Made by a program: the position numbers and the translations under genes | The notes under the pieces: generated by a model | Told to the model about the DNA's origin: nothing | The model's database searches: none | What the model saw: only the letters and a program-made list of their open reading frames with translations | DNA from: an uncultured Candidatus Peribacteria bacterium | Lineage (GTDB): Bacteria > Patescibacteriota > Gracilibacteria > BD1-5 > UBA6164 | Assembly (NCBI GenBank): GCA_964545685.1 | Contig: CAZJHB010000001.1 | Coordinates: 118,470-182,469 of the forward strand | DNA: 64,000 nucleotides | Direction of reading: 5' to 3' | Part shown: piece after piece, positions 37,429-58,462 of the stretch | How the letters are laid out: the number at the start of each line of letters is the position of its first letter | Numbering within the stretch: the first letter of the stretch is position 1

Positions 37429-37456
37429 AAAAAATGATTTTTTTATATTAATTGAT

Positions 37457-54553: not shown

Positions 54554-55510
54554 ATGAAAGTAAAAATAGATATTGATACTTTTAACATTAAAGATTTAAA
54601 TGAAGATACTTATAAAAAATATAATTACACAAGTTTATATAGATATATTATATCTAAAAAATGTAATTATGATGAAATATTATATTTATCAAAATTTGAT
54701 TTAGGTAAAAAAATAAATAATTATATAACTAATAAATATTGTATAAAAAAATACACAGATAAAATATATTATATTAAAGCATTTAGTTTTCATTATCATA
54801 ATAAACATGAAAATATTATCGATTTATTGTCTTATAATCATCAAAATTTAGAAATGTTATATAAAAAATATGACACAACATCCGATATTACAAATTGTTG
54901 TGAACAAATTAAAAATGTATTAAACTATATTCATTCCAATGGTTGGTATCACGGAGACTTACATATGAATAATATAGTTTACGACAATAATAATAAATTA
55001 ATTAAATTAATTGATTTTGAATTATCAGATAATATCAATATAAATTACTTACCATTTGTATATAAAATAGAACCTAAATGTAATATCCATTCGTTATTAA
55101 ACATATTAACAAATGATATATTTAAAAAAGATATATACTATCTTAGTTATTTTAAATTTAAAAATGATATAGAATTATATAGAAATGATAATGTTATTAA
55201 AAAATATAGTACTGAATGCAGCATACAGAATTTACCAATAAATATATTAGATATAATTTATGATATTCAATATAAAAATGCATTTATTCATAGTGTAATA
55301 TTAAAACCTGATTTAAAAATTATTTTTATTTCATCTAAATACATTACATCGATGTGTCGATATCAAAATATTGATATAACAGATTTTTATTATTATGTAA
55401 ATAATAAAAAAAGAAAAGCCGAAATAGATAATTATAAACAATGTTTTTATAATGAATTATATACAAAAAATAATAATCAGCATATTACAAATGTTATTAA
55501 ATATATTTAA
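54554..55510 (+). CDS. protein-kinase-like fold protein
   Basis: NGWYHGDLHMNNIVYDNNNKLIKLIDFELS gives an HGDLHxxN catalytic loop plus DFE (DFG-like), as in RIO/Bud32/APH-type kinases. AAAAAAATGATTAATTATAT lies upstream. Confidence 0.6.
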   Translation: MKVKIDIDTFNIKDLNEDTYKKYNYTSLYRYIISKKCNYDEILYLSKFDLGKKINNYITNKYCIKKYTDKIYYIKAFSFHYHNKHENIIDLLSYNHQNLEMLYKKYDTTSDITNCCEQIKNVLNYIHSNGWYHGDLHMNNIVYDNNNKLIKLIDFELSDNININYLPFVYKIEPKCNIHSLLNILTNDIFKKDIYYLSYFKFKNDIELYRNDNVIKKYSTECSIQNLPINILDIIYDIQYKNAFIHSVILKPDLKIIFISSKYITSMCRYQNIDITDFYYYVNNKKRKAEIDNYKQCFYNELYTKNNNQHITNVIKYI

Positions 55511-55657: not shown

Positions 55658-56299
55658 ATGTCCGAAGGAAGTTCTAATTGCAAGAAGTTTTATATTAATT
55701 ATGATAATCGTAAAGAAGCATATAATTATATCGCTAATATTTCATACTACGCAGTCAAAGATGCATATAAAATGTATATCAAAAAACATCCTGAAGAAGA
55801 TGAAATATGTAAAAATATGTTAGATTTGATATATATTTTAGAAAAATACGATATTGATGATACAACCGGAATTTATTTGACGGGATTATCGTTAAAAAAT
55901 CATGGATTAACAAAAGAAAATTGCTATACCAATGCACGTAAATTTATTGAAAATAAAGATTTTAGAAGCGAAGCTTTAGCCCATAATAGAAATAAAATTG
56001 TAGGCGGCGAAATTGATGATAAAAAAGAAAGATATTATAATTATGTTGATAAAGTAATTGAAGGATTTATTACAAAAAGAGCTACTGATAACAAGTTTAC
56101 AAGAATGTTAAATGATTATGTATTAGACTTTACTAATTTTGATGATACAAAGAATCCATCAGAATACGAATATGTTGATGTTGAAACATGTTACGTGGCT
56201 ACACCAATTAGCGGTTGGCTTAATTTAGCTCATACAATGGGTATTTTCCGTTTCAACATAAACAATATTGTTTATCAAGAGAATTTTGATAAAGAATAA
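55658..56299 (+). CDS. hypothetical protein (213 aa)
   Basis: Track ORF with ATG start and a promoter octamer upstream. No family recognised. Confidence 0.6.
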   Translation: MSEGSSNCKKFYINYDNRKEAYNYIANISYYAVKDAYKMYIKKHPEEDEICKNMLDLIYILEKYDIDDTTGIYLTGLSLKNHGLTKENCYTNARKFIENKDFRSEALAHNRNKIVGGEIDDKKERYYNYVDKVIEGFITKRATDNKFTRMLNDYVLDFTNFDDTKNPSEYEYVDVETCYVATPISGWLNLAHTMGIFRFNINNIVYQENFDKE

Positions 56300-56303
56300 A
56301 AAA

Positions 56304-57731
56304 TTATATAGTTATATGTGTTAAGTTTATATTTTTTTCACGAGATATTCTAAATACTCTATTGGTTTTTTGCATAATTTCAGTTTTTGTATATTTTTTA
56401 TCTGCATCATCAATAATTAAATAATCTGTAATACTGTCTAAATTTAATCCTTCGATATTATTTATTGTTAAATTATCTTTATTAATGTTAAAATTATTAA
56501 TAACCCAATCATATATTGCATTGTTATATACACTTATAAAATATGAATTTTTAGTTAAGATGCTATTAATTATATTTTTTATAACACTTAAATTAACATA
56601 TTCAACTGTGTTGTTCTTTTTGTTATTATCGTCTATCATAATTATATTATTAAATAAATTAATATGTTTATTACATGTTTGACAAATGTTTGTACAATGA
56701 TTATTAGTATTAAAATTAGTAGATTTATATGTATTCATAAATGTAATATAACATTCAGCATGTATTGCATGTCCACAATCACCGTATATGATTAACTTAT
56801 CTATATTATTAAAAACTTTTCTGCAGATAGGACATACCAATTTATCATTTGTCAATTTCAATAATGAATTAAAATCTAATGCTAGTAATTGATTGAAATC
56901 TGTTAATTCTATTTCCGTATCATGTTTTTCAGCATTAATGTAATCTAATAAACTATATAGATATGATTTATTTATATGATCATATTTTTTATTTGTTAAA
57001 ATACTATTTATAAACATTGTACAATTCGATGATGGTATAATATTTAATATATTATTTACAATGTCCTTATTATCATTGGATTGTAGCAATAATGATACAT
57101 AGTATTGTTTATCAACATAATTACGTAATTTTTCATAATTCGTATCAAGTATATATTTATTTTCTATAATATCAAATGCATAATATTTTTTTAAATCTTC
57201 ATATAAATAACGAATTTCATGTATATTTAAATGTTTAACATAATTCACTTCGTAATTTTCCATTTTTTCAACATATCTTAGATATAATAACTTATCAAAT
57301 GTTTTAAATGTATTTAAATAATATGATTGAACATCATCTAATATAACCAATAATTTCATACCATACATAGTAAACATTGATAAGATGTTACAAATATCAC
57401 CATGTGTTGATATAATAATATCATAATCATTGATTGTATCAAAATCCATCTTGTTATTTGCATTTTTATATAGTAATATGTTTGAAAAACTTGTCCATTT
57501 TTTGTATTCATTTAATACTTGTAATGCTAATTTCTCATTTTCTGCAATATAAATAGTTCTATAACCATCCTCTATTAATATGATAGAAGGAATAATAGCA
57601 GATAAGGTTTTACCAGATCCGGTATAACTCGAATTCCATATATGATTATATTTGTTATTTTTATTTGTTAAACATATATATGGAAGGTATTGATCCTCGC
57701 GGTATTTATCGATATTTTTTAAATACTCCAT
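56304..57731 (-). CDS. SF2 helicase-like ATPase with an inserted RING-H2 finger
   Basis: Motif I YTGSGKTLSAI, motif II LLVILDDVQ, motif VI-like QKTNRVFRISR. Between the lobes lies CPICRKVF-x11-CGHAIHAEC-x21-CQTC, a C3H2C3 RING pattern. Confidence 0.65.
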   Translation of the reverse strand: MEYLKNIDKYREDQYLPYICLTNKNNKYNHIWNSSYTGSGKTLSAIIPSIILIEDGYRTIYIAENEKLALQVLNEYKKWTSFSNILLYKNANNKMDFDTINDYDIIISTHGDICNILSMFTMYGMKLLVILDDVQSYYLNTFKTFDKLLYLRYVEKMENYEVNYVKHLNIHEIRYLYEDLKKYYAFDIIENKYILDTNYEKLRNYVDKQYYVSLLLQSNDNKDIVNNILNIIPSSNCTMFINSILTNKKYDHINKSYLYSLLDYINAEKHDTEIELTDFNQLLALDFNSLLKLTNDKLVCPICRKVFNNIDKLIIYGDCGHAIHAECYITFMNTYKSTNFNTNNHCTNICQTCNKHINLFNNIIMIDDNNKKNNTVEYVNLSVIKNIINSILTKNSYFISVYNNAIYDWVINNFNINKDNLTINNIEGLNLDSITDYLIIDDADKKYTKTEIMQKTNRVFRISREKNINLTHITI

Positions 57732-57756
57732 TATTTTATACTAAAAAAATCATTTT

Positions 57757-58335
57757 TTATTTTTCTTCATTAATATTATAAGAAATATTATTATTCATAA
57801 TCTGAAGATATATATTATTTAATTTTTTATTATTTTGGATATATTTTAAAGAATTGCTTGCAATATTTTTAATTTTTTCTTCAGACAATAAGTTGTGACC
57901 AATACCATCATGATCATCTTTATATAGTGAAAACATATTATTTAGAAATTTATACATAATATGAATAAGATCATCACCGGGTTGATATGATGTGGAACCG
58001 ATTATATCATCATATTCATGATAATGTGAAAGAGTTACACATATAGCCATGTTTGTTTTGTATACACCGGTAGGCGTTAATACTCTAATTATAGGAGCAT
58101 ATAATGGATATTCTCGAAAACTAAATTGTATTATATAATAACCACCATCAAACAACTTTGCTGTATCAATATATCGAGATATAAGCTCTTGATCAACATG
58201 AACTAAATAATACACAATAAAATTATTATCTTCCATTAAGGTTGTTATTTTTATATTTAAATCATTATTTTCTTTTAGCATTTTAGCATAATTTTTAAAT
58301 TCAGAAACAATTCTATGAAGATTTATGTTACTCAT
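57757..58335 (-). CDS. ubiquitin-conjugating enzyme E2, UBE2J/Ubc6-like
   Basis: GGYYIIQFSFREYPLYAPIIRVLTPTGVYKTNMAICVTLSHYHEYD resembles UBE2J GG.yhG.i.FP.eYPfkPPsi.mlTPNGRF...kiCLSiS.fHPe.W, with the active-site Cys in AICVTLS. No C-terminal TM tail is present. Confidence 0.7.
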   Translation of the reverse strand: MSNINLHRIVSEFKNYAKMLKENNDLNIKITTLMEDNNFIVYYLVHVDQELISRYIDTAKLFDGGYYIIQFSFREYPLYAPIIRVLTPTGVYKTNMAICVTLSHYHEYDDIIGSTSYQPGDDLIHIMYKFLNNMFSLYKDDHDGIGHNLLSEEKIKNIASNSLKYIQNNKKLNNIYLQIMNNNISYNINEEK

Positions 58336-58462
58336 GACATTTATGTTAAAAAAATCATTTTTATAATTTTGTTATATAATCAAATATGTATAGTGCATGA
58401 ATCAAAGCAATTAATAAATATTGTTATTTATATGATAATAATTATTTTTTAATCAAAAATTA

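Follow-up and report, generated by a model that had tools for sequence, protein, structure and literature searches.

We describe two neighbouring genes in a 64,000-nucleotide (nt) window of contig C1 (CAZJHB010000001.1), a contig assembled and scored as part of a bacterial genome which most likely belongs to a giant virus. The upstream gene encodes a soluble ubiquitin-conjugating enzyme (E2) of the Ubc6/UBE2J type, and the downstream gene, hereafter the RING gene, encodes a protein in which a RING-H2 finger is set into a body that resembles a DEAD-box helicase. A RING finger within such a non-SNF2, DEAD-box-type body was found nowhere else in our searches. The explanation that we favour, tentatively and at slightly less than even probability, is that the two genes form an early-expressed, lineage-specific pair of an E2 and a ubiquitin ligase (E3) of the RING type, the latter built on a degenerate DEAD-box scaffold. 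The coordinates of all features are collected in Table 1.

Table 1. Features of the E2/RING gene pair and its surroundings. Positions are those of the window unless the contig is named; amino acids (aa) are numbered within the respective protein.
Feature	Position	Strand	Description
Window	C1:118470-182469		within a 1.81-Mb, 340-contig assembly
E2 gene	57757-58335	-	192 aa; predicted soluble Ubc6/UBE2J-type ubiquitin-conjugating enzyme without membrane anchor
E2 active-site stretch LTPTGVYKTNMAICVTLSHYH	58018-58080	-	aa 86-106; putative catalytic Cys99 codon at 58039-58041
Early-promoter-like 16-mer AAAAATGATTTTTTTA	58347-58362	-	starts 27 nt upstream of the E2 ATG
Identical promoter-like 16-mer	57742-57757	-	starts 26 nt upstream of the RING gene ATG
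RING-helicase gene	56304-57731	-	475 aa, orphan; putative DEAD-box-derived scaffold with inserted RING-H2 finger
RecA-like lobe 1	57264-57641	-	aa 31-156
Walker A GSGKT	57606-57620	-	in lobe 1, intact
Motif II DDVQ	57327-57338	-	in lobe 1
Motif-IV-like block at the entry of lobe 2	56997-57113	-	aa 207-245, QYYV...CTMFINSI
RING-H2 finger	56673-56834	-	aa 300-353, C-x2-C-x15-C-x-H-x2-H-x2-C-x22-C-x2-C
C-terminal region	56307-56663	-	119 aa; motif V/Va/VI-like strings EGLNL, LIIDDAD, QKTNRVFR, scoring at chance level
Hairpin	56266-56298		13-nt arms, 92% complementary, 7-nt loop; 6-38 nt past the RING gene stop

The nature of the upstream gene is the most readily established. A phmmer search of PDB sequences with the E2 returned yeast Ubc6 (E = 3.7e-8) and UBE2J2 (1.6e-4) and listed no other E2, and Cys99 aligns with the active-site cysteine of Ubc6. 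With a profile of seven viral E2s including the window protein (alignment A2), Ubc6 scored 1.8e-44 and UBE2J2 2.8e-40, whereas the remaining E2s all came out near 1e-14; residues T87, P88, G90, N95, I98, C99 and H106 are invariant in all seven. The C-terminus of the window E2 (...NNNISYNINEEK) is devoid of a hydrophobic stretch and so carries no tail anchor, and its viral relatives end in tails rich in K, E and D, none of them transmembrane. An IMG/VR scan seeded with alignment A1, which combines the window E2 with a fragment of Ubc6, yielded nine giant-virus loci whose full-length homologues are 25-30% identical; for the relatives at loci L004-L012 the figure over the full length is 25-32%. 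In a large protein database 135 relatives were found at E < 1e-10, many of them metagenomic and labelled 'E2 J1/J2' by JGI, followed by fungal Ubc6 and UBE2J1.

The window E2 also bears three lineage-specific insertions. One of these, the seven residues EYDDIIG immediately before the QPG loop, occurs in the window protein alone among the sequences of A2. In E2-RING complexes the loop equivalent to the QPG loop of the E2 contacts the RING. On sequence grounds we regard the window protein as a true Ubc6/UBE2J-type E2 and as the most divergent member of a widespread soluble giant-virus clade. This clade is already known and the E2 itself is not new, giant-virus E2s being well documented (PMC10583209).

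The RING finger of the downstream protein contains eight zinc ligands in C3H2C3 order (C300, C303, C319, H321, H324, C327, C350 and C353), which align one by one with those of RNF4 and EL5. It shares with EL5 the CGHxxHxEC core, and it has Ile in the C-P-I-C motif and Phe at the Trp position. Seven of the ten cysteines of the protein fall within aa 300-353. In profile searches the whole protein left every RING family below its cut-off (the best reaching 21.4 bits against 25.2), while the 84-residue segment excised around the finger passed that of zf-RING_UBOX (25.8 bits against 25.2, E = 1.1e-5); some 20 other RING and PHD families stayed below theirs, and PHD, FYVE and C2H2 families were listed too. 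An alternative is that the Cys/His cluster forms a zinc module of the PHD or treble-clef kind which serves structure or binds nucleic acid and has no ligase activity, or that the whole gene is a fast-decaying orphan with no role in ubiquitylation. The marginal RING scores, the absent linchpin Arg, the lack of homologues and the degenerate helicase motifs would all agree with this alternative. We nevertheless consider it improbable: a zinc module of another kind does not account for the eight ligands in RING-H2 order together with the EL5-type core, the Ile and the Phe, and a decaying orphan sits poorly with a 475-codon open frame in 22% G+C DNA behind a well-placed promoter word. The only same-strand neighbour of the RING gene, moreover, is an E2 gene.

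The case for a functional connection between the two genes comes from their arrangement. They lie on the same strand with the E2 gene upstream and a spacer of 25 nt, which contains no strong hairpin. Each is preceded by the same 16-mer, AAAAATGATTTTTTTA, and in the copy before the RING gene (AAAAATGA...) the first base is also the final A of the E2 stop codon. The 16-mer occurs five times in the whole assembly, always on C1, and two of the five copies are those before the E2 and RING genes. The other three exact copies are found at window position 37430 (+), at C1:1527 (+) and at C1:34673 (-), and the genes near them could be tightly co-regulated with the pair. A scan of the 235 C1 open reading frames (ORFs) of at least 60 aa found the RING consensus in the RING gene only. 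For a second E2 in the genome, tblastn gave no credible match; the scan with the Pfam family UQ_con was also empty, a weak negative since the known E2 was missed as well. The chance that a unique E2 gene and a unique RING gene among about 170 genes would be adjacent is roughly 1% (2/170), and co-orientation halves it.

These observations bear out several elements of the original prediction: a Ubc6/UBE2J-like UBC fold without a C-terminal anchor, confirmed by the PDB matches, the alignment of Cys99 and the lack of a hydrophobic tail; a RING-H2 finger with its full set of ligands in a protein of 475 aa; two co-oriented ORFs of 192 and 475 aa, 25 nt apart; and a promoter-like word of the RING gene overlapping the E2 stop codon. 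Its central proposal, a self-contained ubiquitylation module, is sustained in part. The pairing is plausible, given the adjacency, the shared 16-mer and the absence of any other E2 or RING on C1; conservation of the pairing finds no support among the relatives discussed below.

Could the two genes be no more than neighbours? The E2, a conserved giant-virus gene, might work with host E3s or with other viral ones, as its counterparts must in every relative without the RING gene, and the RING protein with host E2s of the UbcH5 type, while the shared word would reflect the compact packing of early genes. RING E3s mostly accept a variety of E2s, and the E2 clade is widespread in genomes that have no RING gene next to it. 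The promoter word, moreover, is not wholly private to the pair, as its 12-mer core also lies upstream of the neighbouring RCC1 genes, and a related signal, an octamer considered further below, precedes 29% of the ORFs. We judge this alternative, the chief competitor of a cognate pair, to be the less likely of the two on three counts: the sole RING and the sole E2 of a 186.6-kb contig would have to be directly adjacent by an accident of about 1%; two of the mere five copies of the full 16-mer stand before precisely these genes; and the E2 has a lineage-specific insertion beside the loop that contacts RINGs. Because the pair is unique and adjacent, because it shares a rare 16-mer and because the private insertion of the E2 lies near the RING-contacting loop, a cognate partnership between the E2 and the RING protein provides what we provisionally hold to be the best explanation. 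The domain identities, the adjacency, the common promoter word and the singular architecture are established by the data, while the partnership, the impairment of the ATPase and the substrates are inferred.

How would such a pair operate? The assembly contains no ubiquitin gene, so host ubiquitin would be needed and, as far as the partial genome shows, host ubiquitin-activating enzyme (E1) as well. We envisage that the soluble E2 would be charged with host ubiquitin by the host E1, and that the orphan RING-H2 E3 would most likely recruit the charged E2, be it the neighbouring one, a host one or both. The helicase-derived body would then serve as a targeting module that binds nucleotide, RNA or protein, and not as a motor. 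The earlier suggestion that the pair ubiquitylates chromatin or replication-associated targets finds no support: nothing points to DNA, and the DEAD-box ancestry points, if anywhere, to RNA and ribonucleoproteins (RNPs).

The ancestry of the helicase-like body is clearest in its N-terminal part. Lobe 1 matches Pfam DEAD over aa 34-138 (2.2e-13, 50.7 bits against a cut-off of 26), and a BLASTP match to a DEAD-box protein (1e-12) aligns TGSGKT, E-x-LA-x-Q of motif Ia and T-x-G of motif Ib. Comparison with DEAD-box profiles by hhalign gave probabilities of 97.5% and 90.6%. Of the 15 families listed at E <= 1 none is SNF2 (Pfam SNF2-rel_dom) and the helicase matches are confined to DEAD and ResIII, and the Pfam search of the protein found no HIRAN domain. 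The sequence comparisons thus solidly indicate that lobe 1 is of the DEAD-box type and not of the SNF2 type. The catalytic equipment of this lobe is nevertheless incomplete. Motif II reads DDVQ opposite DEVD, with the catalytic Glu replaced by Asp; the SAT of motif III is missing at the aligned place; and the Q motif of DEAD-box helicases is absent. The roles of these motifs are well established in enzymes of helicase superfamily 2 (SF2). Because the Walker B motif is altered, SAT is lost and no arginine-finger motif can be demonstrated, the body is probably a pseudo-helicase, which may still bind nucleotide.

Alignment by hhalign with five viral eIF4A-like helicases is collinear over aa 31-245, with per-column confidence of 6-9 at its end, where QYYV...NDNKDIVNNILNIIPSSNCTMFINSI lies opposite the DEAD-box block leading into motif IV ('IIFxNT'). 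The segment of aa 160-297 taken alone recovers the same motif-IV place, scoring 21.9 against 13.6 +/- 2.5 for 200 shuffled sequences, three of which scored as high. Because this motif-IV-like block precedes the RING finger, lobe 2 by this alignment starts upstream of the finger, which would accordingly sit inside lobe 2. What follows the finger is far less legible. The excised C-terminus has no match to Pfam Helicase_C, and a six-frame scan of the genome with Helicase_C at E <= 10 detected 15 other helicases and nothing at this place. A hidden Markov model (HMM) built from the Helicase_C domains of the genome itself placed the genuine C-terminus at rank 12 of 501 in a comparison with shuffles, and aligned GLNL, LIIDD and QKTNRVFR in the register of motifs V, Va and VI. 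The register depends on the method: hhalign takes LIIDDADKKY for a Walker-B look-alike, a greedy global alignment finds yet another register with the RING in place of the ARGID loop, and the remainder after motif IV, compared by hhalign with lobe 2 after removal of the RING, does not rise above shuffles (43 of 120 as high). None of these registers is preferable to the others, and the ARGxD and HRIGR motifs are not detectable in the RING protein.

These results speak against most of what had been proposed about the helicase part, namely that the protein is an active minimal SF2 ATPase with motifs I, II and VI and a RING between its two lobes, a miniature analogue of RAD5, HLTF and SHPRH in which ATP hydrolysis dependent on nucleic acid would serve to ubiquitylate targets of replication or chromatin within the virus factory. 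The intact Walker A motif speaks for such an enzyme, as do the strings GLNL, LIIDD and Q-x3-R-x2-R, which by eye follow one another and are spaced like motifs V, Va and VI, and the custom HMM that finds the same register. They are outweighed by the missing SNF2 and Helicase_C matches, by DDVQ in motif II and the lost SAT, by the motif-IV-like block before the RING, and by the reading of the C-terminal string as a Walker-B look-alike with a remainder at shuffle level; an action on DNA is further disfavoured by the likeness of lobe 1 to a family acting on RNA. We regard this account as improbable. Motif I (GSGKT) stands, motif II deviates from DExx and motif VI does not exceed shuffles; profile detection of the helicase-like region succeeds for lobe 1 and fails for Helicase_C. 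An active ATPase is at odds with the loss of the Walker B Glu and of SAT and with undetectable motifs V and VI, a RING between the two lobes with the block at aa 207-245, and a second lobe with motif VI downstream of the RING with the missing Helicase_C match, the HMM rank and the shuffle-level hhalign score. The topology of the RAD5/HLTF/SHPRH type finds no support either, since there is no SNF2 match, the core is DEAD-box-like and the RING is inserted at a different point; a derivative of the DEAD-box family is the better description of the protein.

The RING protein appears to be without relatives. A word-indexed search of 5.8 billion clusters for an orthologue returned only the protein itself, and an exhaustive phmmer search of 1.84 billion representatives (about 15 billion proteins) added only two ordinary DEAD-box proteins, matched through lobe 1 at E of about 5e-4. 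Peptide patterns of the protein found no match in viral, metagenome and genome contigs, and the assembly holds no paralogue. A scan of IMG/VR for RING-H2 fingers with the spacing CPIC-x15-CGHxxHxxC identified 57 loci, all of them lacking a P-loop and any similarity to lobe 1; among the longer matches are proteins of the Pirh2 kind with CHY and RING domains, the other being one long low-complexity protein. The former, on giant-virus contigs L026, L036, L040, L064 and L065, combine a CHY zinc finger with RING-H2 and look Pirh2/RCHY1-like by eye, and the latter, at L043, has a RING-H2 finger and a conserved C-terminal domain.

Several observations weigh against the E2/RING-E3 pair that we favour. 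The RING protein is a homologue-less singleton, which makes ligand conservation and purifying selection uncheckable, and in none of the examined relatives does a RING gene lie beside the E2. The RING profile scores are marginal, with one family barely over its cut-off and only once the segment is excised, and the linchpin Arg of RNF4 (CPTC-R-K) is Asn in the window protein (CQTC-N-K), with Lys one position later. The window E2 is missed by Pfam UQ_con, the sole failure among the seven viral homologues (the other six of the seven pass). Its TPNGRF motif, the Asn of which is equivalent to the HPN Asn, reads TPTGVY with Thr at this position; the viral relatives have N or S there (TPNGRF or TPSGRF), and loss of the Asn is recurrent within the viral clade. 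AlphaFold2 single-sequence monomer models of the two proteins reached predicted local distance difference test (pLDDT) values of 42 and 32 and are unusable as structural support.

Relatives of the E2 reside in a different and recurrent setting. Searches by RPB1 synteny and by single-sequence E2 scans found no relatives. Among the IMG/VR loci, in the L009 group (L009, L011, L013-L016, L021 and L022) and at L008, L012, L017 and L019, a canonical DEAD+Helicase_C (eIF4A-like) gene of 401-462 aa is situated 0.1-6 kb upstream of the E2 on the same strand, an order that is found in at least five lineages. Often an RRM gene stands between the two and the E2 is followed by eIF-1A; at L019 there is IF4E nearby as well. 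A conserved mimivirid neighbourhood (L009:3886-9265, L013-L016, L019:1-11848, L021, L022, L008, L012 and L017) reads TPD, 517 aa, 106 aa, eIF4A-like, small gene or RRM, E2, eIF-1A, and at L019:1-11848 IF4E, RFC and PCNA are near the E2 neighbourhood. At L004-L007 and L020 the E2 adjoins a capsid gene. The genes between eIF4A and E2 at L008 and L012 look USP-like by eye and have no Pfam match, and this assignment was dropped. The co-occurrence and synteny anticipated for the pair are hence missing: E2 relatives are many, none beside a RING gene, and no orthologue of the RING-helicase could be detected. The location of the mimivirid Ubc6-like E2 in a translation-factor cluster hints that it acts on translation-related targets.

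Because the synteny of E2 and DEAD-box genes recurs in the relatives, one may ask whether the eIF4A-like gene that flanks the E2 there was transformed into the RING gene. Stripped of motor chemistry and fitted with a RING, the product would be an eIF4A-shaped decoy, docking on eIF4A partners or on host-translation RNPs and delivering them for ubiquitylation by the viral E2. We think this rather unlikely. In phmmer the RING-helicase scores only 0-6 bits against four viral eIF4A-like proteins, the best generic DEAD-box match reaching 35 bits; the gene order is reversed, the E2 being upstream here and downstream of the eIF4A-like gene in the relatives; and no other gene of the relatives' eIF4A-E2 neighbourhood was found on C1. 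On the same three grounds positional orthology with the viral eIF4A-like gene was rejected.

The viral origin of the contig is suggested by its contrast with the remainder of the bin. The assembly is scored as an 83%-complete bacterium, and C1 (186.6 kb, 22-24% G+C) stands apart from it in the use of TGA, which has to be read through on the other contigs. The helicase genes of C1 have no in-frame TGA. On other contigs the helicase genes (e.g. C55:3244-3573, C217:1420-1740 and C30:4846-5166) contain 3-9 in-frame TGA each, and reading TGA as Trp there puts W at conserved Gly of the helicase motifs (RIWRTGR, AARWID). Because W falls where these motifs have Gly, the sequences point to a bacterium with TGA=Gly (code 25-type) as the source of the bulk of the bin. 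C1 also encodes RPB1, a kinase-like gene and RCC1 arrays, and the octamer AAAA[AT]TGA is found 18-45 nt upstream of 49 of its 167 ORFs of at least 120 aa, against 1.4% expected, with a peak at 25-34 nt. C1 is most likely a giant-virus contig co-binned by composition with an AT-rich bacterium. The bacterial relatives of the bin were set aside because C1 is mis-binned, and are irrelevant to its genes. As part of the overall explanation, and with the same reserve, we take the virus to be a divergent, Mimiviridae-like giant virus.

Downstream of the pair, the hairpin listed in Table 1 falls in the last codons of a convergent gene at 55658-56299 (+), and the stop codons of the two genes are 4 nt apart. 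Mimivirus messenger RNAs have hairpin 3' ends, and by analogy the structure is a candidate bidirectional 3'-end signal common to both convergent genes. The convergent gene itself encodes 213 aa with only a sub-threshold match to DUF5845 (E = 0.002). Further on, at 54554-55510 (+) and 0.8 kb from the RING gene, lies a truncated-looking protein-kinase-like gene with a Pfam Pkinase match (4.8e-9) covering the catalytic-loop region only. A kinase gene adjoins the RRM-E2 pair of one relative as well (L017:4421-5320, -), and shows weak similarity to that of the window (29% over 112 aa, E = 0.003).

Giant viruses carry homologues of E1, E2 and E3 enzymes (PMC10583209). If the pair works together, it offers a compact and experimentally tractable case of viruses building ubiquitin ligases from housekeeping enzymes. 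To our knowledge, hardly any cognate E2/E3 pairs encoded by viruses have been defined so far. Should the eIF4A-decoy proposal prove true, it would give the first RING E3 derived from a DEAD-box protein, and the E2/E3 pair of this virus would be directed against translation factors, not against DNA. The mimivirid E2 in its translation-factor cluster constitutes a separate, testable lead on the targets of viral E2s. The weight of these considerations is limited by the fact that the RING gene is a singleton of one metagenomic contig with an E3 activity that is only predicted.

Among known systems, the closest counterparts of the window E2 are yeast Ubc6 and human UBE2J1 and UBE2J2, E2s anchored in the endoplasmic reticulum and active in its associated degradation pathway (PDB 9en5, 2f4w), which are by far its best PDB matches. 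It shares with them the UBC fold, a Cys in the I/L-C-x-S/T-x-S-x-x-H context and T-P-x-G in place of HPN, and differs in the missing tail anchor, Thr for the Asn of TPNGRF, the three insertions and the failure with UQ_con. With the soluble Ubc6-like E2s of Imitervirales metagenome genomes (GVMAG/IMG-VR) it has in common the invariant active-site residues and the lack of a transmembrane tail; their neighbours, however, are translation factors (eIF4A-like, RRM, eIF-1A, IF4E) or a capsid gene, never a RING gene. The RING protein resembles DEAD-box helicases, both the mimivirid eIF4A-like ones and the archaeal and bacterial DeaD-type proteins P0003 and P0004, in its collinear motifs I, Ia and Ib and motif-IV-like block, and departs from them in the absent Q motif, DDVQ for DEAD, the lost SAT, the undetectable ARGxD and HRIGR and the inserted RING.

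Two further comparisons concern the combination of domains. Poxvirus p28, according to the work cited in PMC10583209, joins a KilA-N DNA-binding domain to a RING E3 and targets ubiquitin to virus factories. It may be considered a functional analogue, being likewise a RING E3 of a large DNA virus whose part outside the RING is a targeting module related to nucleic acids; the targeting domain is unrelated, however, and the RING of p28 is terminal and has no viral E2 adjacent to it. RAD5, HLTF and SHPRH, in turn, have a RING embedded mid-chain in an SF2 helicase-like polypeptide and are E3s acting with a dedicated E2, a likeness that we draw to the window pair on the strength of the inferred partnership. 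The differences are nonetheless considerable: the window protein lacks an SNF2 match, a HIRAN domain and a Helicase_C lobe after the RING, has a DEAD-box-like core with degenerate catalytic motifs, is far shorter, and carries its RING after a motif-IV-like block and not between motifs III and IV. Judged by these sequence features, its likeness to the RAD5/HLTF/SHPRH proteins is one of convergent architecture, not of membership.

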